From contig JBEITC010000001.1 of NCBI GenBank assembly GCA_040375075.1, positions 1-48,177 of the forward strand: a stretch of DNA of 48,177 nt, given 5' to 3'. Within the stretch, counting starts at the first letter, position 1. Each line of letters starts with the position of its first letter. The notes beneath the pieces are model-generated. The model did not search any database and was not told where the DNA came from. It saw nothing but the letters and a program-made list of their open reading frames with translations. Origin of the DNA: Planctomycetota bacterium. GTDB lineage: Bacteria > Planctomycetota > UBA1135 > UBA2386. A program made the position numbers and the translations under genes. Shown in pieces: positions 31 to 42,908 of the stretch.

Positions 31-1536
31 TCAGAAGGCCTTGAAGCTGCGCAGCCACTTCGTGTTCTGGCAGAGGAAGCACTTGGAGCGGACGATCCGG
101 CCCTCGGGGCCGAGCTCCGGCAGGCTGCCTTCGCCGTTGCAGCTGATGCAGGGCGAAACCGTGGCGAAGGTCATCGCCAACTGGCCGCCGAACTCCGCGT
201 AGTAGGCGCGCAGCCAACCGATGCGGTCGATGCGCTCCGCCTGACGCCACCAGTCCTCGTCCGTCACCTCGCGCTGCTCGGCGCCCTGCGACTGCGCCGC
301 CTGCCGGCGCTCCTGCGCCTGCCGCAGCAGCTTCGACAGACGATCGAGCTGCGGGTTCGACCCGGCGGCCGCCGTGTCGCCACTGCGCTCCTTCTGTGCG
401 GCATTGGACTTGCCCTGCTGCGTGTCCTTGAGGATCGCAGGCTCCCCCAGCGTCCACGAACCGAGTCCGTAGCTGAAGGCCTCCGGGCGCCGGCCGAGCG
501 CGTTGTCCTTGCGGCCGGCCCACAGCGACTTCACCTCCGCCGCGTCGAGCTTCAACGCGCCGCTGACGCGGGTGACGATGTCGTCGGTCATCTTGCCGGT
601 CGCGTAGTCACGCGCCGCTTGCAGCGTCAGGCCGGCGTCGCCGCAGGCCTTGTCGGCGACGACGCGGATCGACTCGCGCCACCGCTCGGCCACCTGGCCG
701 GTCAGGTAGCGCGTGCGGGACTCGGCGAACCGACGCTTCTCGGCGTCGAACTCGGCCTTGAGCTTCGTCTGCGGGTACTCCTTCTCGAACTGCGCGATGA
801 GCTTGCCGCCCTTGTCGAAGTCGGCGAGGCCGCCGCGGCTGCGCGCCGCCTGGATGTCCTCCAGCAGCTTCAGCTCCTTCGCGGCTTCCTTGTAGCGCTG
901 CAGCTTGCCCGCCAAGGCGTCGATCTGCGGCGGGTTCTTGCTGTTGCCGGCGGCGCGCGCCTTCTCGACGTGCTCGAGCGCCCGGTCGTAGTCGCGCACC
1001 TTCATCAGCTGCTCGGCGACCAGCAGATGCTTGTCGGCGTCGCCGCCCGGACTCATCTGCGTGACGAGGTCGGAGTAGTACTCCTCGCGCGTCATCACCT
1101 GCGTCACCGGCGCGTCGATCTTGCGCACGCCGACGACGTCGCGGCGCTTGATGACGCTGGGCACGCCCTTCTGCTGCACGACGATCGTGTCGGCTCCCTG
1201 CTCGACGATGCGGCCGAGCGCCGTGCGCCGCGTGCCGCCGATCTCGTAGGTCACCTCGTCGGCGCGGACGGTGATCTCCTCCTGGGCGTCGCCGGCGAGG
1301 TCGAAGCGCTTCTTCCAGGCCGTTGCGCTGGCCGGCGTGAGGTGGTCCCAGCGCAGGTCGAGCATGCCGCCGTTGTCGAGCCGGCGGACGCGCATGCCTT
1401 CGCCGGTGACGCTGCCGGGCTCGACCTCGGCCAGCAGCACGCGACCGTCGGCGAGTTGCACCGACTGGGCGCGCGCACCGGCGACGAACGCCAAGGCGAG
1501 CAGGAGGAACGCGAGCGGGAAACGCATCATGGCCAT
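31..1536 (-). CDS. secreted protein of unknown function with C-terminal CxxC...CxxC zinc-ribbon-like motif; last gene of the pseudopilus operon
   Basis: ORF frame 31..1815 trimmed to the in-frame signal-peptide-like start MAMMRFPLAFLLLALAFVAGARA. The ATG at 1536 shares one base with the TGA of the upstream gene. The middle is charged and helical. The C-terminus reads SPCISCNGEGS...KCFLCQ, a CxxCxGxG ... CxxC pattern. No family recognised. Confidence 0.65.
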   Translation of the reverse strand: MAMMRFPLAFLLLALAFVAGARAQSVQLADGRVLLAEVEPGSVTGEGMRVRRLDNGGMLDLRWDHLTPASATAWKKRFDLAGDAQEEITVRADEVTYEIGGTRRTALGRIVEQGADTIVVQQKGVPSVIKRRDVVGVRKIDAPVTQVMTREEYYSDLVTQMSPGGDADKHLLVAEQLMKVRDYDRALEHVEKARAAGNSKNPPQIDALAGKLQRYKEAAKELKLLEDIQAARSRGGLADFDKGGKLIAQFEKEYPQTKLKAEFDAEKRRFAESRTRYLTGQVAERWRESIRVVADKACGDAGLTLQAARDYATGKMTDDIVTRVSGALKLDAAEVKSLWAGRKDNALGRRPEAFSYGLGSWTLGEPAILKDTQQGKSNAAQKERSGDTAAAGSNPQLDRLSKLLRQAQERRQAAQSQGAEQREVTDEDWWRQAERIDRIGWLRAYYAEFGGQLAMTFATVSPCISCNGEGSLPELGPEGRIVRSKCFLCQNTKWLRSFKAF

Positions 1537-2006
1537 CACCTGTCCGTAGTCTCCACAGCGTCGCCGCGGGAGGTCAACACCCGGTCGCGCAACGGCGCCT
1601 GCCGCGGCACGACCCTGAGGTACTCCGACACCACTTCTTCGCCGGCGTCGAACCACTTGGCTTCGATGCGCAGCAACCAGACCGTCGGGCGGTCGTCGTC
1701 GGCGATGGCGCGCACGGACCAGCGAAGGCCCGGGAAGCCAGCCCAAGGTTGGTCGACGAGCGGCTTGAACTCCAGTTCCAACGGCGACGAACTGCCGTCG
1801 CGCCCCGCGACGCACTCGTGCATCGCCCGGTGGACGACGTGCTCGACGAGCGCCGTCGTCTCGAGGCGCACGTCGGCGGTGCGCCGCTGGCCGATGCTGC
1901 TCGCCATCGCCGCGAGCAGCGACGTGACGCCGAACAGCAGGATGCCGAGCGCGGCGAGCATCTCGGCGAGCGTGAAGCCGGCTTCGTGACGACGAGGATC
2001 AACCAT
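1536..2006 (-). CDS. minor pseudopilin with prepilin-type N-terminal cleavage/methylation domain (156 aa, GspI/J-like by size and position)
   Basis: Frame 1536..2075 trimmed to MVDPRRHEAGFTLAEMLAALGILLFGV. G|FTLxE followed by a hydrophobic helix is the class-III (type IV pilin) signal. The ATG at 2006 overlaps the upstream stop (1999-2001) by 8 nt. Confidence 0.8.
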   Translation of the reverse strand: MVDPRRHEAGFTLAEMLAALGILLFGVTSLLAAMASSIGQRRTADVRLETTALVEHVVHRAMHECVAGRDGSSSPLELEFKPLVDQPWAGFPGLRWSVRAIADDDRPTVWLLRIEAKWFDAGEEVVSEYLRVVPRQAPLRDRVLTSRGDAVETTDR

Positions 2007-3213
2007 TCCAATCGTCCTTCGCGTGCAGCACGGGCACGACGAACTCGACGCCGCGGCCGACGTGCACGCGTGCACCGCTCGGATGATCCTTCGCAGTGGT
2101 GCCGCGCAGGCCGCGTCGCAGGCCGCGCAGCTCGTCGCCGCTGCGTTCGGCGTAGGCGATCCACTCGGTGCGCACCTTGATCCAACCGCCGTCGACCGGG
2201 CCGGGGAAGCGATCGCCGTCGTAGAGCCGCAGCGTCGTGTCGTCGTTGACGAGGTCGGTCGCGAGCAGGCCCTCGGGCGCGTACTCGGCCGGCTGCGCCA
2301 CCACCATCCGGACGAGGATCGCGTGCGGGTGCACGTCGTCGCGCGGGTCGCTGGCGCTGGCAGCGCCGCGGTCGAACGGGAACTCGCCGCCAGACGCGGC
2401 GTCGACCAGCCAGCCGCCGCGGGCGCTGTCCCAGCAGCGCAACGCCGCGCCCCCGCCCGCCGTCGTGCCGTCGTCGCGGCCCCATTGGCGGGTCCGCTGC
2501 GACCACAGCAGGAACTCGACGTGCAGCAGATTGCCGACCAGCGGTTGCGTCAGCGTCCAGGCCGCGAGCCCCGGCAGATCCGGCGAGCCCGGCAGCGGCA
2601 CGTCGAACGGATCGACGAAACGATCGGGACCGACCGGCACCACCTGGCCCGGCAGCAGCCACGCCGCGCGCAGTTCGAGCAGCGCTTCGTCGGCGCCTTC
2701 CTGCCGCCACGGCAGCAGCAGCAGGTTGCCGTGGCCGCGCAACGGCAAGCCTTGGCGCCCGGTCGCGATGGCCTTCTCGAGCTCGACGCCGGCGAGCGTC
2801 GGTTGTTCGCGCAGCAGTTCGGCGGCGATCTTGGCGTCGAGCAGCGGCAGTTCGCGGTCCGGTGGCAGCCGGACGGCGCCGCGCAGGACCTGGATCTTCG
2901 TCGCGCCACGCTCCGCCCGCGGCGGCAGACCGAGCGGCAGTTCCTGCACGACGAGCCGGTCGGTGACGAACGGCGATTCCCGCCCGGTCGGCGCGCCGCG
3001 CAGCAGCGCAAGTTCCTGCGTGACGCGCCGCTGTGCCGTGCTGGCGCGGTCGGCGAGCGACTGGCCGAGCTCGCCTTCGCCGAACAGGCGCAGGCCGCCA
3101 TCGACGAGTTGCGCCAGCATCAGCAGGAAGCCGGTGAGGATGCCCATGACGACGAGCAGCTCGATCAGCGTGAAGCCATCGCTGCGGCGGGGCGCGCGGA
3201 GCGTCGCGTTCAT
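1999..3213 (-). CDS. large pseudopilin-like protein with prepilin-type N-terminal methylation domain (404 aa)
   Basis: Only the last 404 codons of the 1591-aa ORF 1999..6774 look real. They start MNATLRAPRRSDGFTLIELLVVMGILTGFLL, a class-III signal. The ATG at 3213 forms an ATGA overlap with the stop of the giant upstream gene (3210-3212). The remaining upstream part of the ORF is Arg/Ala/Pro-rich wrong-frame sequence. Confidence 0.8.
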   Translation of the reverse strand: MNATLRAPRRSDGFTLIELLVVMGILTGFLLMLAQLVDGGLRLFGEGELGQSLADRASTAQRRVTQELALLRGAPTGRESPFVTDRLVVQELPLGLPPRAERGATKIQVLRGAVRLPPDRELPLLDAKIAAELLREQPTLAGVELEKAIATGRQGLPLRGHGNLLLLPWRQEGADEALLELRAAWLLPGQVVPVGPDRFVDPFDVPLPGSPDLPGLAAWTLTQPLVGNLLHVEFLLWSQRTRQWGRDDGTTAGGGAALRCWDSARGGWLVDAASGGEFPFDRGAASASDPRDDVHPHAILVRMVVAQPAEYAPEGLLATDLVNDDTTLRLYDGDRFPGPVDGGWIKVRTEWIAYAERSGDELRGLRRGLRGTTAKDHPSGARVHVGRGVEFVVPVLHAKDDWNG

Positions 3214-6200
3214 CGGGCGGTGATCTCCTCGGCGAGCACGCGGGCCTGGCCTTCGTACTCGACGCGCACGTCCTCGACCTTCGCCGTGGTCTTCCAGCCG
3301 TGCGCCCGGTACGTGACCAGGTCGACACAGCCCGGCTGGTAGCGGGTGAAGAACCGCAGCTCGAGCAGCGCGCCGTGATGCATCAGGCGATGTGGCGGCG
3401 CGTCGGCGCTGCCGCCGCGCAGTTCCCACAGCCCGGCAGCCGGCAGCGCCACGCTGTCCCACGAAAGCTTGCCGTCGACGCGCGCGCGGCACATCAGCTC
3501 GACGCGCGCATCCTGGGTCTCCTGGCGCCAGCGCAGCGTCTTGAAGAAGCCTGGAGCCTCGTTGGCCGAGAGTTGGAAGTAGGCGAGCTCCGGGTCGTCG
3601 CTGCGTTCGACGTAACGGTCCCAGTAGCGGATCGGGAACCACACCAGCGCCTGCCCGGCGGCGCCGGTCGCCGGCGTGGTGCCAAAGCGCCCGCGGAACA
3701 GCCCGCGCGGCTGGCCGCCACCCGGCTCGTCGTCGCCCGGGTAGTGGCGCGGCATCTCGAGCTGCGACTGGTCGCCGTTGCGGCGCACCCAGGTGTAGTG
3801 CAGCAACTCCGTGCCGAGCAGCGCCGTGCCGTTGCGCGGCGGCAGCGCGCCGAGGTCCTGCAGCGGGACCTGTGCGTCGCGCACGCCGACGCCGCCAGCG
3901 AGGATCGCCGCCGGACGGTGCGACAGGAACTGCACGCGGGCGCCGCGGCCATGCCCGCGCGGTTGCGTGTTGAGCATGCCGCGGCCGTTGACCGCCACCT
4001 GGAACGTGCCGTCGGCGTGCGTCTGGTAGGCCACCACTTCGTCGTCGATCTGCACGAGGCCGCCGGTCTGCGGGAAGGCCGGCGTGATGTCGTTGGCGAA
4101 GTAGAGCGGCCCGGCCGAGGTCACGTCGATGCTGCGCTGGACGCGGAACGTCTGCGCCGAATCGTTGACGTCGTCGTCGATCACGAGCGTCGGCCGCGCG
4201 TGCTGCACCAGCTCGACCTCGTCGACCATGCCCTGCATCTGCTGGCTGTTGCCCAGACCGGAGCCGAGCGTCGGCTGCTGGCACCACGCCGCCGGCAGCT
4301 CGCCGCTCGGGAACTTGACGAGTCGGTCGAAGCGGCGCGGATCGAACAGCGGCGTGCCACGCGGCGGGCCGAGGTAGGCGTTGGTGACCTGGTCCTGGAA
4401 CGCGACCAGCTGGAACGGCCACGGCCCCAAGCGCTCGGCCGGAACCTGGTTCTGCTGCAGGTTGTCGGCCTCGTAGCGGCGGCACGACCAGTTGACCGTC
4501 TGCCACTCGACCGGCGGCCGCTGCGTGCCGGTCGCGACCGAGCCCTGCACCATGGCGACCCGGTCGAGCCGGCCAGCGCGGCCGGTGTAGGCGCCGAAGT
4601 TGCCCCACTGCAGCTGCATGCGGTGGCAGGCCGTCACCATCGCGTTCGGTTGCGGGTGCGGCGAGGTGCCGGTGAACGGATCGCCGCGGAACGCCAGCGC
4701 GCGGCGCGCGGCATGGATCTGCGGCCACGTGCTCTCGACCTGCGGCGTGTAGCCGATGTAGCCGGACGTGGCCGCGACCTGGGGCCATGGCGGCGTCGAG
4801 GCCGAGGGCTGCGCGTTCGGACCGAGCGGGCCGACGTCGACCTGGGCCGCACCGATGCGGTTGGTCAGCACGAAGCGCACCGACTCCCACGCGGAGCGGT
4901 TGGCGCGGCAGATGTGGCGGCGGTCGGCGATCACGTCGTAGCGCACCCATTCGGTGTCCACGGCGTTCCCGCCCTGCGGCATCAGTTGGCAGAACTGCGT
5001 CAGTTGCAACGTCTGCGGATCCCAAAGCACCTGCGTGTTGGCGACCGGCAGCGAGATCGGCACGACGAAGACGATCTCCGTCGGCAGGTCGTCGAGGATC
5101 TTGCCGGGTTCCTGCGGCAGGCCGTAGTCCTCGTAGTTGACGACGAAGCGGCGCGGTCGGCCGTCGAACTGGTCGGTCGGGATCTGGCCGTCCTGACCCG
5201 GCAGCGCCTGCTGCTGCGCGCGCGTCACGCCGGTCAGCTGGTTGCCCTGGCGCGCGGTGAACTTGATCACCTCGACGCCACCGAAGGTCGCGGACGCCGA
5301 CGTCGTCGCTTGCGAGCGATCCCATCGCTGCAGGCCCTGCACGAGCAGCGCGTAGCCGCCGGTCGTCGGGAAGGCGTTGAGGATCTGTTCGTTGGCGGCG
5401 CTCGGCGGGTACGTGCGACCGGTCGGCACCGGGTCCGCCAGCAGGATGTTGCCGGTCCACGTCTCGTCGAGGCCCGTGCCGATCGGGAACGACGGCCCCT
5501 GCGGGATCGTGATCGTGATCGGTCGCGGGTTGTCGATGAAGCAGCGCGCCACCGCGAAGCCGCCGATGGAGCCCTCGATCGTCGTCTTGCCGACCATCAT
5601 CGGCGTGTCCTCGCTGAGCGGCAGCGACCAGCCGGCCAGTTCGACCAGCGAGCCAGCCGGGTGTGCCGGGAACACGTCGAGGTTCACGCCCTGGAACTGC
5701 GAGCTGTTGATGTCGACCGTCGGGTTGCCTTGCGCGTCGACCGGAATGTCGGGGCGCATCTCGCGGCCGCGCATGCGCGCCGCGCGCCCGCCCATCGAGT
5801 CGTTCCACTGGCAGCGGAACGAGTTGCCGCGCACGCTCGTGTACTCGAACAGCTCGGTGCCGATGCGCAGCAGGCCGACGGGCGGGAAGCCCTCGGTGCT
5901 CTCGACCTGCAGGTCGACGTAGCGGTCGTTGCCGGCGACGCCCGGGAGCGTCTGGTTGTTGGCCAGCTGCGGGTCGAACACCGGCAGCGACGCCGTCAGG
6001 TAGGTCTGGAAGCGCGGCTTGCCGCGCGGGAAGCCGTCGACGTGCAGCGAAAGGTCCGACGGCCGTCCGCCAGCGGCCTGGAACGCCACGTGGACCGGCG
6101 TGTTGGCCGGCAGACCGAGCTCGGCGAGCGGCAAGACCACTTGCGTGGCGGTGCGCGGCACACCGGCCGGCGACGCGCCTGGATTGGGGTCGAGGCCAGC

Positions 6201-8414
6201 CTCGTCGATCGACTCGAGCAGCAGGTTGCCGTCGCGTGCTTCGAGCGCGAGCCGGTTGCGCTGGTCGCTGCCATCGCCGTGCTCGAACAGCGTCACCGCG
6301 CCGAGCGCCTGCGGCTCGAACCACGCGCTGAGCGCCAACTTGCCGAGGAAGCTGTCCTGCGTGCTGAACGGGAACGCGATCTGGTCGTGCCGGCCGGTGC
6401 CCTGCTGCGTCGTCGCCTGACGTTGCTGCTGCGGTTGGTTGCCTTGGCCAGGCTGGCCTTGCGGCTGCGACGGACCATTGTTGTTGAGCAGCAGCGCTCC
6501 GAGCTTGCTGACGTCGTGGCCACGCACGTCCTGCGCGGCCCAGAACGTCTCCTGCACGCGCAGCGTCGGCGAGATGCGGTAGTTGCCCGGCATCGCGGTC
6601 GCCGGCGCTGCTTGGATGCCGGCCGCGGCGTCGTCGCGGGCCGGGAAGCGCAACTGGCCGAAGCCGAGGTTGGGGAACGCCGCCGCAAGCAGGTGCGGCG
6701 CCGCGCGACTCGCCGGGTCGTTGCCCGGTGAATTGGGCTGCAAGGCGCCGAGGTTGACCGGGTTGGTCGTCCAATAGGGCGCGCGGCGATCGAGCAGGAA
6801 CGCTTCTTCGAACTGCTCCTGCGTCGACCAGCGGCGTTCGACGCCGAAGCCCGGCACGGCGGCGGCAACGCCGGTGCGCTCATTGCGTGCGGCCACGCCC
6901 GGCGCCAGCGAACTGCGCGTGCGGCTGGCAGCGGCGCGGTAGGCCATCCACGGCCCCGACTGGAAGCAGATGGGTGCCGTGCCCATCTCGAGCACCGTGT
7001 CACGGCCGGTCTGCAGGTTGCGGTAGACGTTGATCAGCAGCGAGCTCTCGTCCTGGCTGGCCGCCGCTTCGAGCCGCGGTCGCCACAGGCGCTCGACGAG
7101 GTCTTGCCAGCCGGTGAACGGGCCCGTGCCTGCCGTGTCGGTCGCGGTGCGGAGCAGCACGAGGTCGTCGGCGAGCTGGCGCGCCTTGTCGCGGGAGAAC
7201 ACCGGCGGCGACGTCCGGATGGTGCCGGACTCGCTCTGTCGCACCTGCGGCGGCTGGCGCAACTGCGTCAGCAAGGCGGCGAGGACCTCAGCGCTCGCGG
7301 TGTTGGCGTTCACCGGCGGCGGCACGAGCGGCTCGACCACCGTGTCGATGGCGGGGAAGTCCTGCAGCACGGCGTGCAGCAGGTTGAGCAGGAACGTGCT
7401 CGGCAACGCCACGGCCTGCTGGCCGGTGGCCGATGCCGTGCCGACGACGAGGCCGTGCTCGACCGCGCCGGTGCGCAGGTTGCGCAGCCGCACCGTGCTG
7501 CCGGGACCGAGGTGCAGCGCGGACTTGACGATCAGCGTCCGCGCGCCGGGCGCGAGGTCGCCGAACACGCGCTCGGGACGCCCCCACTGAGGCGCCGTGA
7601 CCGCCTGGGTGTCGAGCGCGAAGTTGGCGCGCAGCAGGTCGAGCTCGGCCGGCGTGAACGCGCCAGCGCCGGCACGCTCGATCTCCAGCAGGTCGCCGAC
7701 CGCCTGCCACGGCTTGCGCGTGCGCCGCGTCGCGTCGGCCATGTTCGGCCAGTTGCTCGCCAGGACGCAGCGCCAGTCGAGCAGCAACGTCTGCGCCGGG
7801 ATCGGCTCGCGACCGTCGCCGAACTCCGGCGCGTCGATGGCGCGTTGCAACTGCCGCAGCGAGCTGCCGTCCTTGCCGCCGTAGCGGATCAACTCGCCGC
7901 CGACGAAGACCATGCCGCTCTCCGGCAGGTTCGTGGCGTCGTCGACCGCGATGGCGTCGGCGTCGGGCAGCAACTCTTCGCGGAGGCGCGTCGTCGATCC
8001 CAGCACGTTGGCGATCAGCAGCGGCGAGGCGCCGTCCAGCGACGGGAAACGCTGCAGGTCGACGACGCCGCCGCCGAACACGACCTTGCCGTCCTCGCCC
8101 AGCGGCGCGAACGCCTTGGGCAGGTCGACGCGCGCCGGGAACTCGTCGATGCCGTCGTAGAGCGGCGTCGGGTCGATCGCCGGGTGCGAGAGCGCCGCGT
8201 CGGCGAGCAGCAGTTCGCGCACGCTGGCCGAGCCCTGCGTCACCGCCGCTTCCTCGACATCGCGCTGCGCTGCGTCGGCGCCGACCGACATCGACACCGC
8301 GAACGGCAGCGCCAGCAGCATCAGCAGCGTCAAGGCGAAGAGCACGGCGAGCAACGCCATGCCGGCGGCGCGATCCGCCATGCCGGCGGCGCGACCAATC
8401 GTCGAGCGAATCAT
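3210..8414 (-). CDS. giant GspK-like minor pseudopilin / filament tip protein (1734 aa)
   Basis: Frame 3210..8510 trimmed to MIRSTIG..., whose ATG at 8414 makes an ATGA overlap with the upstream stop at 8411-8413. The N-terminus GMALLAVLFALTLLMLLALPF resembles the GspK-type anchor (no Glu5). VNANTASAEVLAALL (nt 7272-7313) resembles the GspK NxNTA...L helix-hairpin-helix motif. Further features are a LamG-like block (about nt 6015-6347), a Gln-rich linker (about 6410-6500) and several copies of a GxE(L/V)(I/V)xY...RG..GT module. Confidence 0.75.
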   Translation of the reverse strand: MIRSTIGRAAGMADRAAGMALLAVLFALTLLMLLALPFAVSMSVGADAAQRDVEEAAVTQGSASVRELLLADAALSHPAIDPTPLYDGIDEFPARVDLPKAFAPLGEDGKVVFGGGVVDLQRFPSLDGASPLLIANVLGSTTRLREELLPDADAIAVDDATNLPESGMVFVGGELIRYGGKDGSSLRQLQRAIDAPEFGDGREPIPAQTLLLDWRCVLASNWPNMADATRRTRKPWQAVGDLLEIERAGAGAFTPAELDLLRANFALDTQAVTAPQWGRPERVFGDLAPGARTLIVKSALHLGPGSTVRLRNLRTGAVEHGLVVGTASATGQQAVALPSTFLLNLLHAVLQDFPAIDTVVEPLVPPPVNANTASAEVLAALLTQLRQPPQVRQSESGTIRTSPPVFSRDKARQLADDLVLLRTATDTAGTGPFTGWQDLVERLWRPRLEAAASQDESSLLINVYRNLQTGRDTVLEMGTAPICFQSGPWMAYRAAASRTRSSLAPGVAARNERTGVAAAVPGFGVERRWSTQEQFEEAFLLDRRAPYWTTNPVNLGALQPNSPGNDPASRAAPHLLAAAFPNLGFGQLRFPARDDAAAGIQAAPATAMPGNYRISPTLRVQETFWAAQDVRGHDVSKLGALLLNNNGPSQPQGQPGQGNQPQQQRQATTQQGTGRHDQIAFPFSTQDSFLGKLALSAWFEPQALGAVTLFEHGDGSDQRNRLALEARDGNLLLESIDEAGLDPNPGASPAGVPRTATQVVLPLAELGLPANTPVHVAFQAAGGRPSDLSLHVDGFPRGKPRFQTYLTASLPVFDPQLANNQTLPGVAGNDRYVDLQVESTEGFPPVGLLRIGTELFEYTSVRGNSFRCQWNDSMGGRAARMRGREMRPDIPVDAQGNPTVDINSSQFQGVNLDVFPAHPAGSLVELAGWSLPLSEDTPMMVGKTTIEGSIGGFAVARCFIDNPRPITITIPQGPSFPIGTGLDETWTGNILLADPVPTGRTYPPSAANEQILNAFPTTGGYALLVQGLQRWDRSQATTSASATFGGVEVIKFTARQGNQLTGVTRAQQQALPGQDGQIPTDQFDGRPRRFVVNYEDYGLPQEPGKILDDLPTEIVFVVPISLPVANTQVLWDPQTLQLTQFCQLMPQGGNAVDTEWVRYDVIADRRHICRANRSAWESVRFVLTNRIGAAQVDVGPLGPNAQPSASTPPWPQVAATSGYIGYTPQVESTWPQIHAARRALAFRGDPFTGTSPHPQPNAMVTACHRMQLQWGNFGAYTGRAGRLDRVAMVQGSVATGTQRPPVEWQTVNWSCRRYEADNLQQNQVPAERLGPWPFQLVAFQDQVTNAYLGPPRGTPLFDPRRFDRLVKFPSGELPAAWCQQPTLGSGLGNSQQMQGMVDEVELVQHARPTLVIDDDVNDSAQTFRVQRSIDVTSAGPLYFANDITPAFPQTGGLVQIDDEVVAYQTHADGTFQVAVNGRGMLNTQPRGHGRGARVQFLSHRPAAILAGGVGVRDAQVPLQDLGALPPRNGTALLGTELLHYTWVRRNGDQSQLEMPRHYPGDDEPGGGQPRGLFRGRFGTTPATGAAGQALVWFPIRYWDRYVERSDDPELAYFQLSANEAPGFFKTLRWRQETQDARVELMCRARVDGKLSWDSVALPAAGLWELRGGSADAPPHRLMHHGALLELRFFTRYQPGCVDLVTYRAHGWKTTAKVEDVRVEYEGQARVLAEEITAR
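8355..8396 (-). repeat. perfect-phase 21-bp tandem duplication (2 units, 20/21 identical) inside the 5' end of the giant gene
   Basis: Plus strand reads cgccatgccggcggcgcgatc (8355-8375) followed by cgccatgccggcggcgcgacc (8376-8396). It encodes RAAGMAD/RAAGMAL just before the membrane anchor and creates two extra in-frame ATG codons. Confidence 0.85.
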
Positions 8415-9340
8415 GCCCCTCCCTCCCGCACGGTGAACACCGCGGTCGGCGCTTCGATCGCCTCGCCGCGCGCGTCGAACGAAAAACGCAGCGGCTTGCT
8501 GACCTCGCACTCGATCGGCAACTGCTGTGGCGAGCCGAACTGATAGACGAACCAGCGCACCTCGTCGACCACGCCAGCGAACGCCGCGTCCGCCGGGGCG
8601 AACTCGAACGTCGCTTCGGGCTCCTGCTGCGGCGTGCCTTCGGCGACCGCGTCCCCGACTTCACGGCCATCGACCGACAGCCAGCAGCGGCGGGTGTCAC
8701 AGCCGAGTTCGATCGTGCACCAGCGGCCGCGCGGCAGCGGTTGCGCGGCGACGACGGCGATGAGCCGGTTGTCGTTGCTGCCGAGCGCTGCCATGCGCAG
8801 GCGCGCGCGCAGCTTGCCGTCGGCGTCGAGCGTCAACTCGATGCCGGGCGGCAGGCGCAGCAGCGTCGCCGGCCCGTCCGACGCGAGCAGCAGGTCGAAC
8901 CGCACGACGAAGCCCTCGCGCAGGTCGAGCAGCGATTGCGGCGCCGTCCACCGGACCGCCGCGCCCCGCCCGCCGGGCGCTACGCGCAGCGCGTGGCCGA
9001 AGCGGCCGTCGCGCGTCGCTTCGCCGCCGAGCGCTGGCCGCAGGCTGTCGTCCTCGTAGCCCTGGTTCGGCTCGAAGCGAAAGGCGACGACCGGCCGCAG
9101 CAGCCGCGACTGCACCGTCGCCGGACTCTCGTCGCCGCCCGGCCGCACCAGCACTTCGGTCGGCACGCCTTCGGCGCGCGCCGACAGCTGGGCCGCCCGC
9201 AGTTCGCCGCCGAGCGCGGCGTTGGCCACCATCGTCGGGTCGGTCTTGCCGAGGAAGCCGACGGACAAGCCGGTGAGGACCGACAGGATGGCGATCACCA
9301 CCAGCAGTTCGAACAGCGTGAATCCGGCGGTGGCGCGCAT
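8411..9340 (-). CDS. GspH-position pseudopilin fused to a LamG/concanavalin-like domain (309 aa)
   Basis: N-terminus MRATAGFTLFELLVVIAILSVLTGL is a class-III signal. The C-terminal two-thirds show a LamG-like pattern: DGRFGHALRV...GFVVRFDLL...RGRWCTIELGCD...WLSVDGREVG...FAGVVDEVRWFVY. Confidence 0.8.
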   Translation of the reverse strand: MRATAGFTLFELLVVIAILSVLTGLSVGFLGKTDPTMVANAALGGELRAAQLSARAEGVPTEVLVRPGGDESPATVQSRLLRPVVAFRFEPNQGYEDDSLRPALGGEATRDGRFGHALRVAPGGRGAAVRWTAPQSLLDLREGFVVRFDLLLASDGPATLLRLPPGIELTLDADGKLRARLRMAALGSNDNRLIAVVAAQPLPRGRWCTIELGCDTRRCWLSVDGREVGDAVAEGTPQQEPEATFEFAPADAAFAGVVDEVRWFVYQFGSPQQLPIECEVSKPLRFSFDARGEAIEAPTAVFTVREGGA

Positions 9341-9379: not shown

Positions 9380-10015
9380 TCAGTTCGCCGGCCAGACGAT
9401 GTCGTCGTCGGTGCCGAATCGTTGGTCAGGGCCAGCGCTCAGGAGTTGGAACTTGCCGGCGCCATAGATGACGCCGTCGGGACGCCGACGCGTCTTGACC
9501 TGCGCGGTGTCGGACTCGGCGTCGGCCTTGACCACCTGCGCGCGCTCGAGGCCGAACTTGCCGAAGTAGGCGATCGGCGTGCGCCAGTGGTCGGTGATCT
9601 CGAGCCGGTCGCGGCGCTTGAGCAACGGCAGGTCGACGCCGTGGTCGTCCGCGTCGGTGTTGCTGAAGCGGTCCGCGAGGCTCGTCAGGTCGAGGCCGTC
9701 CTGCTGCGACTGGCTGAGGAAGCAGACCAGCGACTCGATGCCGGTGTTGACGCCGTTGTCGCCCTTCCACGTCGCCTTGGCGATGCCCTCCGGCGCCTTC
9801 AGGTCGTCCGGCGGGAAGATGCCGTGCTTGCGCTGGAAGCGCTGGATGCCGCCTTCGAGCATCTGCAGGTTGGTCTCGGTGGCGGCGGCGTTGGCGGCCT
9901 CGTTGGCGCCGAACACCTGTGGCAGCAGCACGGCGGCGAGCACGCCGAGGATCGAGATCACGATCAGCAACTCGATCAGGGTGAAGCCGCGCGCAGCGGC
10001 GGTCGGACGGGACAT
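9380..10015 (-). CDS. gspG: type II secretion major pseudopilin GspG-like (211 aa)
   Basis: MSRPTAAARGFTLIELLIVISILGVLAAVLLPQ is a canonical GspG/PulG-type N-terminus. The C-terminal LLSAGPDQRFGTDDDI matches the GspG calcium-loop-like ending (SxGPDG..GT.DDI). Confidence 0.85.
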   Translation of the reverse strand: MSRPTAAARGFTLIELLIVISILGVLAAVLLPQVFGANEAANAAATETNLQMLEGGIQRFQRKHGIFPPDDLKAPEGIAKATWKGDNGVNTGIESLVCFLSQSQQDGLDLTSLADRFSNTDADDHGVDLPLLKRRDRLEITDHWRTPIAYFGKFGLERAQVVKADAESDTAQVKTRRRPDGVIYGAGKFQLLSAGPDQRFGTDDDIVWPAN

Positions 10016-10016: not shown

Positions 10017-12725
10017 TCAGCGCTCCTTGCGGCGTTCGAGCCGCCAGTCGTCGAAGGCGACGTCGACGTCGTCGCCCTTGTCGCCGAGCGCGAAGAGCAC
10101 CGTCTTCAGCTCGGAGTTGGTATTGCCGGTCAGCGCCTTCATGACGCGGCGGTGGACGACCGCGCCATTCCAGCTGACGACGAGCGCGAACTGCCGCGTC
10201 GCCGCATCGCCTTGCGGCACGAGGCGCAGTTCCAGGCTGGCCGCAGCGCCCGGCTGGAAACCAGGGATCGCGAGGTTCACCTGCTCGACCGCGGCTTCGC
10301 CGTTCTCACGGCCATCCTCGATGCGCAGGAAGGGCTTGCCTTCGCGCACGCCGACGCGGACCAGCACGTCCGTGCCCTGGTTGCCGCGCGGCACCTCGAT
10401 GCCGACGCCGTAGAAGCCGCGTGCGGAGGGCTGGCCAGCGCCGGCCTGCACCGTGGCGGACACGGCGAGGAAGTTGCGGCCCTTCTTGATCGCGCTGACG
10501 CGCTCGGCCCAGACCTGGCCTTGACCGGAGCGGCTGTACTTGCCGCGGAACGCCAACCGGCCGTCGACGATCTTGCCGCCGAGCGGGCCGTCGTCGTCGA
10601 CGGCCCAGACGCTGCCGACCTCGGCGCGGTCGAAGGAGTCGCCGAGCGATTCCTTCTGCGCATGGTCGTCGATCGCGTCGAGCGTCGCGGAGGCCCACTT
10701 CGACACCGGATCGTCCTTGCCGAGGTCCTGGGTCAGGCGCTGCAGCGCCATGGCGGCGTCGTCAACCTGACCGCGGCTGTAGTCGACGACCGCCAGGGCG
10801 CCCTTGCCGAACGCCTTGTTGCGCTCGTCGGCCGCTGCGTCGCGACCGGCGGCGAAGGCCGAGCTCGCGGCGCGCGGCTCGGCCGCGGCGAAGGCGATGA
10901 CGCCTTGCCACTCGAGCAGCTCCTGCGCCACCAGCGGCGCCAGCGCGACCGCGCGGTCGGCGTAGCGCAGCGCGGCGACGATGGCCGCCGCCTGCTCCTC
11001 GCCCACGCTCTCCCGCGCACGCGCGGCCTGCGCGGCCGCCATCTCGGCGACGGCGTGCACGAAGTCGTCGCGCATACGCAGCGCCCCTGACAGCGCCTCG
11101 ACCGCGGCGCCGAGCTGGCCCGAGAGGCGCAGCGCACGACCGCGCAGGTACTGCGCGAACACGTCGGTCGGATCCGCCTCGAGCGCGCGATCGAGCCAGC
11201 CGAGCGCCGTCTCGTACTGGCCGACGCGCAGGAACGCCCAGGCCACGCCGGTGGCGGCGCGGTGCCGCAGCAGCGGATCCTGGTCGAAGACGCGCAGGAA
11301 CAGGTCGTGCGCTTCCTGCAGCTTGTCGAGCCACGCGAGGCAGGCCGCCTGCCCGAGCTGCGCGGCTCCGAGGTCGCCGACGTTGGTCACGTTGCGGAAC
11401 GCGGCGAGCGCGGCGTTGGCGTCGCCGGCGGCGTACGCGATGCAGCCTTCGAGGTACTGCGTGCCGCCTTCCGTGCCTTGCGCCATCGGCAGCGCGGCGC
11501 GGGCGCCGGCGAGGTCGCCGATGGCGAGCCGGCACTGCACGATGATGCGGCCGACGCGCGCCTTGGCGACGGGATCCTGCACCGAGCCGATGGCCTGCTC
11601 GGCGCGCTGCGCGGCGCCAGCCGCTTCCTTGCTGCGACCGCGCTGGCGCAGGAACTCGGCGAGCGCCGCATGCGGCCGCGCGTCCGTCGGCTGCAGCTGC
11701 GCGGCCTGCCGCAGGTCTGCCTCGGCGTCGCGCCAGAGGCCGAGCCGCGCCTTGACGACGCCCAGGCCCTCGAAGCGGAAGGCGCCTTCACTGCCGTTCG
11801 CCGGCAGCTTGTCGAGCATCGCCAGTTCGGCGGCGAGGTCGCCCTGCATGCGCAGCACGCGCTGCATCAGCCGCAAGCCTTCGAGGTCGCCCTTGGACAA
11901 CTCGCGGTAGCGCTGCGCGTGGAAGAACGCCTTCTCGTACACCCAGCTGTGTTCGCGCGCGCGCTCGAGCAGCCAGTCGACCAGGCCGCGACGCTCGGGC
12001 AGGTGCGACGGCAGGTCCGGCACCTTGCGCTCGCGCCGAACGATCTCGTTGCGCAGCGTGTTGGCGAGGACCACGCGGTCGATCCGCAGCGGATCGCCGC
12101 CCAGCGTGATGACCTCGGCGAGGCGCTGGCGCGTCAGGTCGTACTTGCGCAGCTTGAGCGTGACGCCGGCGAAGTCCGTGCGCTCCTCGAGCGCGAAGAG
12201 GTCCAGGCCTTCGCCCTCGAGCACGCCGAACTGGGGCGCGGCAAGGCCACCGTAGTAGACGCGGTCGTAGGTCAGCGCGGCGCGCGCTTCCATGTCCGAG
12301 CGCGTCGACGGGGCCTGGCCGTCGCCGGCCTCCGCCGCGGGCGCTGCGGCCGGCGACTCGCCAGCGGCAGCGAGGGCGACGTCGGCCAGCACGCCACCGT
12401 CGGCGCGCAGCGTGTAGGCCTGGCGCGGATCCGGACCTGGATCGAGCGGCAACGCCGCGAGCGACAGCGGCGCATGCGGCGGGAAGTCGAGCGCGCGCGG
12501 CGGCAGCGACTTCGTCTCGCTCGGTTCGGTGCAGAAGTCGCGGCGCGCGGGCGCCGGCGCCGACGAGTCGACCAACGCCGGCACGGCGACCGTCGCGGCC
12601 TCGTACTCGGCGGCCTGCGGCGAGTAGCGGCGGAAGGCCGGCGGACCGCCGAGGTAGCCCTTGGCGACGAGGGCCACGACGACCAACGTCAGCACGGCGA
12701 GAACCTGTTCCTTGCGCATCGCCAT
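10017..12725 (-). CDS. membrane-anchored TPR-repeat protein with C-terminal concanavalin-like jelly-roll domain (902 aa)
   Basis: Frame 10017..12794 trimmed to MAMRKEQVLAVLTLVVVALVAKG. The ATG at 12725 shares a base with the upstream TGA. It has a single N-terminal TM helix and a long TPR-like helical-repeat region (e.g. GQYETALGWLDRALEADPTDVFAQYLRG). The C-terminal 200 aa (about nt 10020-10640) end in VDVAFDDWRLE, resembling DUF1080/LamG-type folds. Confidence 0.75.
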   Translation of the reverse strand: MAMRKEQVLAVLTLVVVALVAKGYLGGPPAFRRYSPQAAEYEAATVAVPALVDSSAPAPARRDFCTEPSETKSLPPRALDFPPHAPLSLAALPLDPGPDPRQAYTLRADGGVLADVALAAAGESPAAAPAAEAGDGQAPSTRSDMEARAALTYDRVYYGGLAAPQFGVLEGEGLDLFALEERTDFAGVTLKLRKYDLTRQRLAEVITLGGDPLRIDRVVLANTLRNEIVRRERKVPDLPSHLPERRGLVDWLLERAREHSWVYEKAFFHAQRYRELSKGDLEGLRLMQRVLRMQGDLAAELAMLDKLPANGSEGAFRFEGLGVVKARLGLWRDAEADLRQAAQLQPTDARPHAALAEFLRQRGRSKEAAGAAQRAEQAIGSVQDPVAKARVGRIIVQCRLAIGDLAGARAALPMAQGTEGGTQYLEGCIAYAAGDANAALAAFRNVTNVGDLGAAQLGQAACLAWLDKLQEAHDLFLRVFDQDPLLRHRAATGVAWAFLRVGQYETALGWLDRALEADPTDVFAQYLRGRALRLSGQLGAAVEALSGALRMRDDFVHAVAEMAAAQAARARESVGEEQAAAIVAALRYADRAVALAPLVAQELLEWQGVIAFAAAEPRAASSAFAAGRDAAADERNKAFGKGALAVVDYSRGQVDDAAMALQRLTQDLGKDDPVSKWASATLDAIDDHAQKESLGDSFDRAEVGSVWAVDDDGPLGGKIVDGRLAFRGKYSRSGQGQVWAERVSAIKKGRNFLAVSATVQAGAGQPSARGFYGVGIEVPRGNQGTDVLVRVGVREGKPFLRIEDGRENGEAAVEQVNLAIPGFQPGAAASLELRLVPQGDAATRQFALVVSWNGAVVHRRVMKALTGNTNSELKTVLFALGDKGDDVDVAFDDWRLERRKER

Positions 12726-13546
12726 CACTTGCCCTCCTGCTCGTCGGCCTTCGGCTTGAACGCGATGCCGACCGCCGTGCCCTTGATCGAGCACGGTTCA
12801 CCCGGCCGCGCCGGCTTCAGCATCTGCCACGACTCCAGCACGAGCGCCTGGCCCTGGGTCGATCCGCGCATCGCCTCGAGGAAGGCCAACGCGGTGGCCT
12901 CGTCGGACTGGAACTGGAACGACAACTGCTCTTGCGTGAAGAAGTCGCGGACGTCGATTTCGCCCTGCCGCGGCGCGCGCAGCGGCGAACGCTGGCTGCG
13001 GCGCGCGTCGAGCCGCAGCGCCAGGATGGCGCGCAACCCCACCGCCGCCTCGTCGCCGGCGCGCGTTGCGTCGTGCGCAGCGAACAGTCGTTGCTGGCAC
13101 GCGTCGATCAACTCGAGCCCGAACAGCGTCGCGCGGATCTCGTCGACGCCGGTCGGCACCTCCCACGCGATGCCACCATCGGCGACCTGCACGTCGCGCT
13201 GGTTCGCCGCCGTGAGGATCCGCTGCTTGAGGTCGCGGCTCTGCTGGAAGAGGAAGTCGCCCGGCCGGACGCCTTCCGGCAGCTGGAACCCGGCGCCAGG
13301 CACGTACTGCAATGCCGCGACGAGCGCGGCGCGCGCCTTGGCGAGCTCTTCGCCCTCGGTCCGGGCGGCGTCGAGCGCGGCCTGCGTGTAGACCGGCCCG
13401 GTCGGCGCGCCGAGGCTGCGCTCGGTCTGCAGCCGCACCGCGTGGACCGAATCGAAGATCGCGCTGACGACCAGCCAGCCGACGGCGCCGCAACCGGCAC
13501 CGAGCAGCCACTTCTTGTTCTCCTGAACGAACGCGCCGACGTCCAT
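12725..13546 (-). CDS. bitopic inner-membrane assembly protein in the PilO/GspM position (273 aa)
   Basis: Last 273 codons of ORF 12725..15145, starting MDVGAFVQENKKWLLGAGCGAVGWLVVSAIF (one TM helix). The ATG at 13546 shares a base with the PilM/N stop. The functional call rests on position and topology only. Confidence 0.55.
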   Translation of the reverse strand: MDVGAFVQENKKWLLGAGCGAVGWLVVSAIFDSVHAVRLQTERSLGAPTGPVYTQAALDAARTEGEELAKARAALVAALQYVPGAGFQLPEGVRPGDFLFQQSRDLKQRILTAANQRDVQVADGGIAWEVPTGVDEIRATLFGLELIDACQQRLFAAHDATRAGDEAAVGLRAILALRLDARRSQRSPLRAPRQGEIDVRDFFTQEQLSFQFQSDEATALAFLEAMRGSTQGQALVLESWQMLKPARPGEPCSIKGTAVGIAFKPKADEQEGK

Positions 13547-15165
13547 CACTTCGCCTCCTTGGCGAGCTCGACCGTGATGCGGAATCGCTCCGCCTTGTCC
13601 TGGCTGGCGATCGGCACCATCTGCGCCTCGAGGCCGGCCATGCCCGGGTCCGCCTGCATCGCTTGCTTGAACTTGAGGATGGCGCCGCTGGTCTGCACGC
13701 CATCGACCTCCTTGCCAGCGCCCTCGATGACGACGGCCGGCTTCTTGCGCACGCCGCCACCACCGCCGGCGGTCACTTCGACCTTCTCGATCCACAGCTG
13801 CGGCGGCAGGTGCGCGGCGACCGCCCGCTGGATCCGCAGCAGGCCGTGTTGCGCGAGCGACAGGCCGGCAAGGTGCTCGACCAGCGCGCGGTCGGCCTTG
13901 TTGGCGTCGATCTGCGCCGCCGCGTCGTTCTGGATGGTGGTCGCCGTGCCGATCTGGCGACGCAGTTGCTGGCCAGCGACCTCCGCCGCAGCGACGGCCT
14001 TGCCGCCGTGGACCCACTCGAGCGCCAACGCGCCGACCACGAGCGCGCCGGCGGCGATGTTCCAGATCGTGCGCTGTTGGAAGCGCTGCGCCTTGCGCAC
14101 CGCCTCCGGCAGGATCTCGAGCGCGTACAGCGACTCGTCGAGCCGACCGACCGCGAGACCGAGGGCCACGACGGCCTCCGCCCGGTTGGCCTGCAGCATC
14201 TCGGCGTCCGCCGGCGGCAGCGCCGACAGGTCGAGGTTGGCGAACGGATCGAACGCCTCGACCGGGCACCGCAGGGCTTCGCGCAGGAAGCCGCGCACGC
14301 CGCGCAGGTTGGCGCCGCCGCCGCTGAGCAGCACGCGGTCGACCTTCAGGTCCGCGATCTTCGTCTGGCTCTTGCAGAACGAGATCGACGACTGGATCGC
14401 GGAGCTGATCGCGCCCGCCGCCGACGTCGCCGCGAGCGCGACCTTCTCCGCCGGGCCGCCGCCGTGACGACCGCGGTTCTGCGGGTCGATGTCCAGCAGC
14501 TCCTTCTTGAGCGCTTCGGCCTTGCGCTCCGAGACGTTGAACGCCGACGCGATCGCGTCGTCGAAGACCTTGGCGCCCGCGCTGAGGTTGCGCGCGAACA
14601 ACAGGTCGGTGCCCTTGACGATGGCGAGGTCGATCGTCTGGTGGCCGATGTGCGCCAGCACGACGACGCTGTCGGCCTCGACCGGGCCGCACTTCAGGTA
14701 GGCGTTGTAGAGCGCCGTGCAGTTCGGGACGAACGCGGCGACCGCGCCGCCGGCGTCCTTGACCTGCTGCTGCAACCGGTCGAGCGCGTCGTCCTTGGCG
14801 AGCGCGAGCAGGATCGTGTCGACGCCCGACTCGGGGTCCTGGCTCGGCAGCAGGTTGTAGTCGGCGGAGAGCGCTCCGCCGGACTGCTGCGCGAGATCGG
14901 CGATCTCGAGGTCCATCAGGTTGCGCAGCTGCCAGTCCGGCGTCGGCGGCACCTGGCTGTAGCGCAGCATCATGTCGCGGCCGGTCACGCCGCAGACGAC
15001 GCCGGCGAGCGGCACGCCGGCATCGCGCAGGCTCGCTGGCTGGCCGTCCTCGCCGCGCGGGACGACCGAGAACCGCAGGATCTTCACGCCGTGCTTGTCG
15101 GCCGAGGCCACCAGCGTCTTCGCGCTGTGGCTGCCCAGGTCGCACGCAGTCGCTTTCTTCGCCAT
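13546..15165 (-). CDS. pilM: PilM-PilN fusion / GspL-like assembly protein (539 aa)
   Basis: The actin-like ATPase fold motifs of PilM are present: N-terminal CDLGSHSAKTLV and LLSGGGANLRG. A TM helix (IWNIAAGALVVGALALEWV) and a PilN-like coiled/periplasmic tail follow. Confidence 0.8.
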   Translation of the reverse strand: MAKKATACDLGSHSAKTLVASADKHGVKILRFSVVPRGEDGQPASLRDAGVPLAGVVCGVTGRDMMLRYSQVPPTPDWQLRNLMDLEIADLAQQSGGALSADYNLLPSQDPESGVDTILLALAKDDALDRLQQQVKDAGGAVAAFVPNCTALYNAYLKCGPVEADSVVVLAHIGHQTIDLAIVKGTDLLFARNLSAGAKVFDDAIASAFNVSERKAEALKKELLDIDPQNRGRHGGGPAEKVALAATSAAGAISSAIQSSISFCKSQTKIADLKVDRVLLSGGGANLRGVRGFLREALRCPVEAFDPFANLDLSALPPADAEMLQANRAEAVVALGLAVGRLDESLYALEILPEAVRKAQRFQQRTIWNIAAGALVVGALALEWVHGGKAVAAAEVAGQQLRRQIGTATTIQNDAAAQIDANKADRALVEHLAGLSLAQHGLLRIQRAVAAHLPPQLWIEKVEVTAGGGGGVRKKPAVVIEGAGKEVDGVQTSGAILKFKQAMQADPGMAGLEAQMVPIASQDKAERFRITVELAKEAK

Positions 15166-17134: not shown

Positions 17135-17347
17135 CGGTGGGTTGAGGGGTCGGGCGGCGAGCGAGCCGCATCACGCGGTGCGCGCCGGCGGACTGCCGGC
17201 GCACCGGACGGGTCGGGGACGCGAGCCCGGCTCCGGATCAGCACAAACTAGCCCCGCGTCGATGCGCCGCAACCAAGCGTTGCCAAGACTTCTACGCCTC
17301 ATCGAGGTCGCCGCGTCGCGACGTCGCCGCTACAACCTGCCGCTGGG

Positions 17348-18028: not shown

Positions 18029-18035
18029 GGCCGCC

Positions 18036-18076: not shown

Positions 18077-18097
18077 CGCTGCCGTCACTCGCCGGCG

Positions 18098-38423: not shown

Positions 38424-38442
38424 GGCTTGGGCAGGGCTCGGT

Positions 38443-41266: not shown

Positions 41267-41300
41267 TCCCGATCGGCCCCTGAACCCGAGCCGCCACGCC

Positions 41301-42892: not shown

Positions 42893-42908
42893 GCGACCGC
42901 GCGGTCGA

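Follow-up and report, generated by a model that had tools for sequence, protein, structure and literature searches.

The window analysed here, 48,177 nucleotides of DNA from a Planctomycetota bacterium (assembly GCA_040375075.1, contig JBEITC010000001.1), contains a gene for a 1734-residue protein that very probably belongs to the GspK type of minor pseudopilins, which are known in type II secretion systems (T2SS). The coding sequence lies on the minus strand (3210..8414, stop codon included) and is supported by its translation, its codon-position GC content and its full-length homologues. Its start codon (ATG at 8414) shares bases with the stop codon of the gene upstream, and its stop codon (TGA, 3210-3212) shares bases with the start codon (ATG at 3213) of the gene downstream. 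The window has a GC content of 72%, and open reading frames (ORFs) of 1591 aa (1999-6774, minus strand) and 1143 aa (3300-6731, plus strand) overlap the giant gene in other frames. These two ORFs are chance products of such GC-rich DNA, and because chance long ORFs arise in several frames at 72% GC, the length of an ORF alone is no evidence of a gene in this window. The frame of the giant gene showed GC fractions of 0.72, 0.51 and 0.91 at the first, second and third codon positions, which is a coding-type pattern.

An identical protein is already in the database, and 105 homologue clusters were found at 42-80% identity to the giant protein. Almost all of these are 1712-1775 aa long; the few shorter entries are truncated and lie on short contigs. 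A scan using one genome per species found full-length relatives (37-92% identity) in at least 120 genomes. Except for a few records whose organism labels are odd or generic, these are metagenome-assembled genomes of uncultured Planctomycetota. An exhaustive search with residues 1-1200 as the query matched 317 representative clusters, the complete ones being 1543-2042 aa long at 28-44% identity. The full-length homologues come from independent assemblies produced in many studies, and conservation in the family alignment spans the whole chain. In one distant relative from an ENA metagenome, P0316 (2042 aa), the GspK-type match starts at residue 322; its first ~320 residues look like an H-like pseudopilin, reflecting either a real H-K fusion or a merge caused by gene calling or a frameshift. 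All members of the family are named 'hypothetical protein' in the databases, except some members of one cluster that are called PulG in IMG, and our literature search found no paper that describes the family.

The N-terminal part of the protein (residues 1 to ~535) forms a GspK-like module. A short basic leader runs to Gly18 and is followed by a hydrophobic alpha1-N segment without Glu at +5; the sequence, the family motif and the structural model all describe a class III-like signal anchor of the GspK type (8307..8414, aa 1-36). The N-terminus reads MIRSTIGRAAGMADRAAG before the predicted cleavage site and MALLAVLFALTLLMLLAL after it, the context of the site being AAG followed by MALLAVLFALTLL. 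The anchor GMALLAVLFALTLLMLLAL spans aa 18-36 (nt 8363-8307), with Gly18 at -1 and Ala at +5. Across 94 distant full-length homologues the motif R-G-x-A-L-[IL]-x-V-L is kept, again without Glu5, and GspK of E. coli K-12, which starts MNNEQRG/VALLIVL (the slash marks the boundary after Gly-1), shows the same Glu5-less pattern. Gly at -1, a hydrophobic alpha1-N and the absence of Glu at +5, which together characterise GspK, were thus all found in the giant protein.

In the AlphaFold model of residues 1-690 (predicted local distance difference test score, pLDDT, 85.4; predicted template modelling score, pTM, 0.85), a single helix covers aa 14-74. The beta1 strand follows (8016..8090, aa 109-133; strand 111-119 in the model), and its motif 'GG.V.DLQR...LD.ASPLL' was aligned by hhalign with 'D.Q..FNLN.L' of GspK, in agreement with the matches of relatives to positions 1-105 of the NCBIfam GspK profile. 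A small beta domain that is inserted relative to GspK comes next (7770..7997, aa 140-215; model strands 142-213) and represents copy 1 of a recurring module (G.v.vgGELIRYG...), as judged by hhalign comparison between copies. The model then places helices at 214-264, including 239-247 and 255-264, and here lies a first helix-hairpin-helix (HhH)-like element (PWQAVGDLLEIERAG..FTPAELDLL; 7623..7709, aa 236-264), which hhalign aligned to 'vsELr.v.Gmt' of GspK. A second inserted beta domain (7326..7583, aa 278-363; model strands 281-363) falls in a gap of the GspK profile alignment. The second HhH motif, PPVNANTASAEVLAALLTQL (7260..7319, aa 366-385), has its model helix at 375-382 and is supported by Pfam T2SSK, by a profile match in the PDB and by hhalign (anchor 2, 87.7%); within it, VNANTASAEVLAALL (aa 368-382, nt 7313-7269) aligned with the start of Pfam T2SSK. 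Three alpha-domain helices (408-469) and a beta hairpin (489-499/507-518) that closes the pilin-type sheet complete the module (6861..7193, aa 408-518), were modelled with pLDDT >90 and aligned with the C-terminal half of GspK. In this model, the order of elements is the GspK order plus two inserted beta domains. Down to 25-28% identity, the pilin module keeps its Gly-1, its alpha1 helix, the motif of beta1 and the hairpin that closes its sheet.

GspK is represented by PDB entries 3CI0 and 5VTM, by NCBIfam NF037980 (cut-off 130 bits), and by Pfam PF21687 and PF03934 (T2SSK; cut-off 24.2 bits). For hhalign, the N-terminal 640 residues of the family were compared with a canonical GspK set of 43 proteins of 286-393 aa. 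The two profiles matched with a probability of 94.5% (E 8e-8), and the alignment was collinear through the membrane helix, beta1, the first HhH, the second HhH (INVNTA vs PVNVNTA), the later helices and the C-terminal hairpin; the conserved 'GVERRWSTQ' (aa 523-531) aligned with the last strand of GspK. After removal of the membrane helix the probability was 77% (score 46.6), while 30 column-shuffled GspK profiles reached at most 6.4% (score 29.3), and the probability was 0.1% both for the reversed profile and for the C-terminal 1100 residues. Of 27 diverse members of the family, 17 matched NF037980 T2SS_GspK (best E 3e-12), with matches at profile positions 1-105 and 210-253 of 307, and 12 matched Pfam T2SSK; no other pilin family was matched by more than one of the 27. 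The N_methyl signature (IPR012902) was present in three of these relatives and was not matched by the window protein. A profile built from 42 family members had a single PDB match, GspK/XcpX of P. aeruginosa (5vtm_X, E 0.18), located at the HhH motif.

Segment 334-520 alone matched Pfam T2SSK at E 5e-4, with 20.8 bits against the cut-off of 24.2. The best Foldseek hits of the N-terminal model in the PDB were weak (E >= 0.02) and comprised small beta barrels, namely the N-terminal domains of tailspikes and of V-ATPase B and domain 2 of EF-Tu; the aligned residues were not reported, and these hits may correspond to the inserted domain at aa 140-215. The earlier note on this DNA, made from the sequence without database searches, had called the protein GspK-like and several times larger than usual, with a Glu5-less GspK-type anchor and an HhH-like motif at 7272-7313. 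Our results bear out this description: the homology is remote and specific, covering the helix with beta1 and the HhH alpha-domain; the anchor is present; and the HhH-like motif is present at nt 7313-7269, its T2SSK match lying below threshold. At the level of sequence profiles, the family is homologous to GspK in its pilin part and its HhH part, yet it is not a GspK equivalog. We regard the GspK-type identity of the giant protein as well supported and highly likely.

The C-terminal part of the protein (residues 640-1734) was modelled with a pLDDT of 90.5 and a pTM of 0.86 and is almost wholly beta; this pTM suggests an integrated body, not beads on a string. Near its start lies a disordered linker rich in Gln, Pro and Gly (6399..6485, aa 644-672), which is evident in the sequence, has pLDDT <50 in both models and is not conserved in the family consensus. 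A LamG/ConA-like jelly-roll domain follows (5997..6347, aa ~690-806). In a Foldseek search of the PDB, the C-terminal model matched agrin, neurexin LNS and CBM40 domains with a probability of 0.98-0.99 over ~115 columns at a root-mean-square deviation (rmsd) of ~4 A; the aligned residues of these hits were not reported, and the domain was assigned to aa ~690-806 from the sequence pattern and the strand layout. The Pfam scan of the window protein gave no match in this block, and Laminin_G_3 was matched by 12 of the 27 family members (best E 4e-9). In BFVD, a database of predicted viral structures, phage tail proteins, fibres and 'structural' proteins accounted for 41 matches at E <= 1e-3. Locally, the best of these covered 194 columns at an rmsd of 4.9 A, and because global TM-scores were low, the resemblance to phage proteins is at the domain level only.

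The recurring module has the consensus [FL]P..G.v..G.E.I.Y....G..l....RG..GT....H..G..V, and five copies were supported by profile-profile comparison (hhalign, probability 77-97%). Besides copy 1 in the GspK-like part, these are copy 2 (GLLRIGTELFEYTS...GGRAAR...HPAGSLVEL; 5625..5942, aa 825-930; 93.4% with copy 1), whose motif is conserved in the wide family, copy 3 (GGVEVIKFTARQGNQLTGVTRAQ; 5190..5357, aa 1020-1075; 96.6% with copy 1), and copies 5 and 6 (GGLVQIDDEVVAYQ...GRGMLNT..RGHGRGARV and ALLGTELLHYT...GLFRGRFGTTP; 3615..4127, aa 1430-1600; each 77% with copy 1). A sixth candidate, m4 (aa 1135-1185), scored at most 15% against the other copies and is suggested solely by a motif of the wider-family consensus. 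Self-BLAST detected no internal repeats, the copies emerging only by profile-profile comparison. A weak Pfam Rcc01698_C match was seen at aa ~1571-1591, as it was in 3 of the 27 family members. The LamG-like block (nt 6347-5997), the Gln/Pro/Gly-rich linker (nt 6485-6399, previously put at about 6410-6500) and the recurring module had all been raised in the earlier note, and each was recovered here.

The chain ends in a conserved tail, RVLAEEITAR (3213..3245, aa 1724-1734), which the fragment model leaves unpaired. Only these last 11 residues (pLDDT <50) and the linker were predicted with low confidence in the C-terminal model. Residues R1725, E1729 and R1734 are nearly invariant, and the tail pattern is retained in distant homologues. 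By analogy with filament tips in which a peptide of this kind completes a pilin sheet, the tail may be a candidate donor strand or a partner-binding peptide (PMC13533445).

The giant gene is the seventh of ten genes that run on the minus strand from 17134 to 31, tightly packed and often overlapping, in the order FHA, PilM/GspL-like, 273-aa, TPR, G, H, giant K, J, I and Cys-rich protein. The first gene (15188-17134) encodes an FHA-domain membrane protein found by Pfam; its N-terminal FHA domain also matches the T3SS YscD cytoplasmic domain and is accompanied by a transmembrane segment and a ~500-aa domain without a family match, which makes it an unusual component for a pseudopilin operon. It is followed by a PilM-like protein with a transmembrane segment, a GspL-like architecture seen by Pfam and in the sequence (13546-15165), a 273-aa bitopic protein defined by the Pfam scan and synteny (12725-13546), and a 925-aa TPR protein assigned by Pfam, whose start is uncertain (10017-12794).

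The remaining pilin-like genes flank the giant gene. Upstream lie a GspG-like, presumptive major pseudopilin of 211 aa with G/FTLIELL and Glu5 (9380..10015; N_methyl; TIGR01710 gspG, E 1e-13; present in 39/39 loci) and a GspH-like minor pseudopilin of 309 aa (8411..9340; N_methyl; gspH, E 3e-5; synteny), which appears to have its own LamG-like domain, with a sub-threshold Laminin_G_3 match (E 6.6e-4). Downstream, the pseudopilin in the GspJ position (404 aa; 1999..3213) was identified by N_methyl, sequence and synteny and likewise carries G/FTLIELL with Glu5; NCBI names some of its orthologues PulJ/GspJ family. It ends in one copy of the module (GWIKVRTEWIAYAERSGDELRGLRRGLRGTTAKDHPSGARV; aa ~350-395, nt ~2166-2030), following G.i.v..E.i.Y...RG..GT..H..G..V. 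Next comes a GspI/XpsI-like minor pseudopilin of ~156 aa (1536..2006), supported by gspI/ComGE matches and synteny; its orthologue in one related locus (L057) matches XpsI at positions 2-115 of 132 (E 5e-11). The last gene (31..1539) encodes a ~502-aa protein, recognised by sequence and by synteny in 39/39 loci, with a predicted signal peptide (MAMMRFPLAFLLLALAFVAGARAQ) and a Cys-rich C-terminus, CISCNGEGS...CFLCQ (CxxCxGxG...CxxC), that recalls DnaJ-type zinc fingers; no Pfam family was found in it. The H-like and J-position subunits (309 and 404 aa) look enlarged compared with GspH and GspJ of E. coli K-12 (169 and 195 aa).

All ten genes keep their order and strand in 39 of 39 related loci with complete flanks, including loci in which identity to the giant protein falls to 37%, and in locus L001 the upstream half of the operon likewise has this order and strand. 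The G, H, J and I proteins of ten divergent loci all carry G/FTLxE with Glu5, and the giant protein is the only Glu5-less subunit among them. A single Glu5-less subunit amid Glu5-bearing ones is the arrangement of type II secretion.

Two ORFs in this region were rejected on account of their Arg/Ala-rich nonsense translations: 12798-13763, displaced by the 273-aa gene on the minus strand, and 17330-18088, displaced by rsmE (17348-18028, plus strand). Upstream of the operon, past the divergent rsmE, lies a gene (18098-20380, minus strand) with an extreme third-position GC fraction of 0.96. Its 760-aa product has a predicted signal peptide and matches no family, and a similar gene occurs in only 7 of the 39 related loci. 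Farther away, the region 37206-43640 contains three ATP-grasp enzyme genes (37206-38534, 38443-39930 and 41301-42521), a starch/glycogen-synthase-like glycosyltransferase gene (39029-41266, plus strand) that overlaps the second ATP-grasp ORF as called, and, in the same cluster, a 4'-phosphopantetheinyl transferase gene (42909-43640). This cluster may encode a small peptide or metabolite pathway. The gene at 46574-48177 (plus strand, running off the window end) encodes a PSCyt2/DUF1549 protein with a CBM35-like domain, PSCyt2/DUF1549 being a typical planctomycete protein family, in keeping with the Planctomycetota origin to which the homologues point.

Compared with GspK/XcpX, the giant protein shares, as judged by profile alignment, the Gly-1 hydrophobic segment without Glu5, and alpha1, the beta1 'DLQ', an HhH alpha-domain inside the pilin sheet and the closing hairpin in the same sequence, and its gene sits among genes for G/H/I/J-type pseudopilins. 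It differs in being ~5 times longer than the collected GspK proteins (1734 vs 286-393 aa), in the two beta domains within the GspK module and the ~1200 appended residues, in scores that are far under the family cut-offs, and in an operon ordered G-H-K-J-I with no linked GspD/E/F found.

Large proteins at filament tips offer further comparisons. PilY1/PilC and MshQ, large adhesins at the tips of type IVa and MSHA pili, are beta-rich proteins of ~1000-1200 residues that sit on an I-J-K minor-pilin tip, are encoded beside a K-type gene and are anchored by a C-terminal peptide (PMC13533445). The head of the giant protein is similar in size and the protein has a conserved unpaired C-terminal peptide, but PilY1, PilC and MshQ are separate non-pilin proteins, whereas this head is covalently joined to a K-type pilin. 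In addition, neither Pfam nor the best 50 Foldseek hits revealed a PilY1-like beta-propeller or a vWA domain in the window protein, and its N-terminus is pilin-like, not Sec-type. TadG/CpaL/KilN combine a pilin-like N-terminal module with a large modular domain and act as the K-analogue of the Tad pilus tip, and CpaL's extreme C-terminus is predicted to rejoin the pilin sheet (PMC13533445, PMC12075869). These proteins have ~600 residues compared with 1734, are components of Tad (type IVc) systems, which have Flp pilins, and showed no sequence or domain similarity to the giant protein in our comparison.

Pilins with grafted binding modules, often lectins of the ConA/LamG type, are widespread (PMC8179133). 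The giant protein fits the description of a modular type IV pilin given in that survey, having a GspK-like pilin module followed by LamG-like and other beta domains, but it lacks the N_methyl signature (IPR012902) on which the survey relied (PMC8179133). Like S. sanguinis PilB (vWA) and PilC (ConA-like lectin), T. thermophilus ComZ and CofB of enterotoxigenic E. coli, it joins a pilin module to grafted binding modules, and LamG-like domains are found both in it and in its H-like neighbour. However, the most extreme multi-domain case singled out in the survey has 860 aa (PMC8179133), whereas the giant family is twice that length with many more domains and is built on a GspK-type chassis, not on a canonical Glu5-bearing pilin module.

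A relationship to the Verru_Chthon cassette is unproven. In this cassette, protein A (TIGR02600) is large and is encoded alongside three proteins of prepilin type. The cassette is uncharacterised and comes from the Planctomycetes-Verrucomicrobia-Chlamydiae superphylum, to which the window also belongs, and the profiles of its proteins B, C and D, with lengths of 151, 361 and 196, are similar in size to the I-, J- and H-like neighbours. The neighbours matched B, C and D weakly, over the generic prepilin N-terminus only. Membership of the giant protein in the protein A family was not supported: the window protein had no TIGR02600 match at E <= 0.1, and only 2 of the 27 relatives had one, at E ~0.016.

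Filament assembly is primed by an I-J-K tip complex whose apex is a GspK/PilK-type subunit; the K sheet obtains its last strand either in cis (GspK, CpaL) or in trans, from the C-terminal peptide of a large adhesin (PilY1/PilC, probably MshQ), and several K homologues have large insertions ahead of this strand (PMC13533445). By analogy, we favour, as a somewhat better than even proposition, that the giant protein is a GspK/PilK-class minor (pseudo)pilin serving as a modular tip pseudopilin that displays a ligand-binding head, with a filament that would serve for capture or adhesion. As modelled, the folds resembling LamG and phage fibres make plausible what the earlier note suggested, a tip-displayed adhesin or capture head with which the filament would bind and not act as a piston. 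On the narrower question of whether the giant protein is displayed at the tip and binds there, which rests on analogy, our opinion is evenly divided. According to this proposal, the giant protein and its GspG-, LamG-bearing GspH-, enlarged GspJ- and GspI-like partners would be made from one translationally coupled operon; the GspI- and GspJ-type subunits and the apical Glu5-less K subunit would prime and cap a type IV filament; and the giant protein, at the filament tip, would present a ~120 kDa binding head for glycans or surfaces. Glycans would probably be the ligand class of this head. Together, the LamG-bearing H, the enlarged J and the giant K could form an oversized ligand-binding tip. 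For the pilin sheet there are two options. The C-terminal peptide may rejoin it or clamp a partner subunit, or 'GVERRWSTQ' (aa 523-531) may complete it in cis, which would make the rest of the protein a pure appendage.

Several results weigh against the proposal of a GspK-type tip subunit with a displayed head. The window protein had no Pfam or NCBIfam match at default settings and none in a phmmer search of the PDB; it also had no NCBIfam match at E <= 0.1, and PF21687 was unmatched in both the window protein and its relatives. A signal emerged only when segments, profiles or relatives were used. Scores stayed below the GspK family cut-offs, with 15-21 bits for T2SSK in the window protein and 19-42 bits against 130 for NF037980 in the relatives. 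When the whole 690-residue multi-domain model, in which two inserted domains split the core, was searched against the PDB with Foldseek, no GspK appeared among the best 50 hits. The coevolution analyses of tail docking to the pilin sheet of the N-terminal part did not help the proposal either. In mutual information with average product correction (MI-APC; 194 sequences), partners of the tail seemed enriched at aa 467-517, but the same columns were promiscuous; in mean-field direct-coupling analysis, gap artefacts dominated and a control hairpin was not recovered. The gene order G-H-K-J-I departs from the usual G-H-I-J-K, and the I-J-K order is almost invariant (PMC13533445). Passage of a compact ~120 kDa body through a secretin may be difficult. 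Finally, a search of the window and, in relatives, of distances up to 10 kb found no gene for GspD, GspE, GspF, a platform protein, a secretin or a prepilin peptidase; with no ATPase, secretin or platform gene nearby, the filament may be a periplasmic pseudopilus or a surface pilus.

This last point bears on the alternative that the protein caps a strictly periplasmic T2SS pseudopilus, its head being a cargo-docking platform, a piston face or a secretin-gating plug that never reaches the surface. Like the major subunit, the H, I and J neighbours are nearer to Gsp than to Pil models, the GspK model is the one matched specifically, and the PilM-like protein, with its PilM-plus-transmembrane architecture, resembles GspL. 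A compact 120-kDa head (pTM 0.86) would also suit the periplasm better than passage through a secretin, and T2SS tips are thought to touch cargo and secretin (PMC13533445). However, the operon has no linked gene for a secretin, an ATPase or GspC/F, lectin- and phage-fibre-type domains are typical of exposed binding proteins, and the enlargement of H by a LamG-like domain and of J by a beta module suggests display; we consider this alternative unlikely. The absence of an assembly ATPase gene nearby would also fit a GspK descendant that no longer polymerises and acts as an anchored static scaffold or sensor in an envelope complex with FHA, TPR and zinc-finger proteins. The strict co-conservation of the unusual non-pilin genes, which encode the membrane protein with the FHA domain, the TPR protein of 925 aa and the secreted Cys-rich protein, and the lack of an N_methyl match in the window protein point the same way. 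Yet four canonical prepilin genes flank the giant gene with overlapping start and stop codons, and the conservation of Gly-1, alpha1, beta1 and the hairpin down to 25-28% identity would be unexpected for mere anchoring, so that we regard a static scaffold as very unlikely.

The chance ORFs of 1591 and 1143 aa that overlap the giant gene, and the resemblance of P0316 to a fusion of an H-like gene with a giant gene, could be taken as signs that the gene is an assembly artefact, a chance GC-rich ORF or an accidental gene fusion. Against this stand the coding pattern of third-position GC in the giant-gene frame, the identical protein on record and the full-length homologues from independent assemblies, and conservation over the whole length, with both halves folding at pLDDT 85-90. 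An artefact or fusion, which the earlier note had named as one way in which its reading might fail, is excluded by full-length homologues in 105 clusters, in at least 120 species genomes and in 317 clusters, and we give it practically no credence. Great length, 1543-2042 aa among complete homologues, characterises the family as a whole.

Every T2SS pseudopilus and most type IV pili have a GspK/PilK-type subunit at their apex. Such subunits are normally small, and large tip functions usually come from separate proteins, such as PilY1 and MshQ. Modular tip pilins are known as a principle; the novelty here lies in the scale, in the use of a GspK-type chassis, in the reversed order of the genes and in the accessory genes. 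K-type subunits of ~1700 residues would be the largest pilin-like proteins that our literature search found described, the extreme in the modular-pilin survey being 860 aa (PMC8179133). The family shows that an adhesin-sized head can be fused onto a K subunit, and it offers a natural test case for the model in which tips are licensed by beta-strand addition. If the C-terminal peptide does complete the sheet after an insertion of ~1200 residues, this would be the most extreme case of licensing by cis beta-strand addition under that model (PMC13533445).

Dextran-binding fibres and the uptake of whole macromolecules have been described in planctomycetes (PMC5394234). It is a long shot, in our estimate, that the ten-gene operon encodes a distinct, Planctomycetota-specific type IV filament marked by its ten-gene order, its reversed K-J-I arrangement and its lack of a linked ATPase or secretin gene, and that its oversized tip, a ~190-kDa GspK homologue together with the LamG-bearing H and the enlarged J, captures polysaccharides or particles, which retraction then delivers to the cell; if so, the giant tip would be a molecular candidate for the dextran-binding fibres and macromolecule uptake of these organisms (PMC5394234). 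The present analysis provides a function-level annotation for hundreds of 'hypothetical proteins' in abundant uncultured Planctomycetota of freshwater, marine and soil habitats, and if the head binds glycans, the family would bear on how these bacteria capture polymeric carbon.

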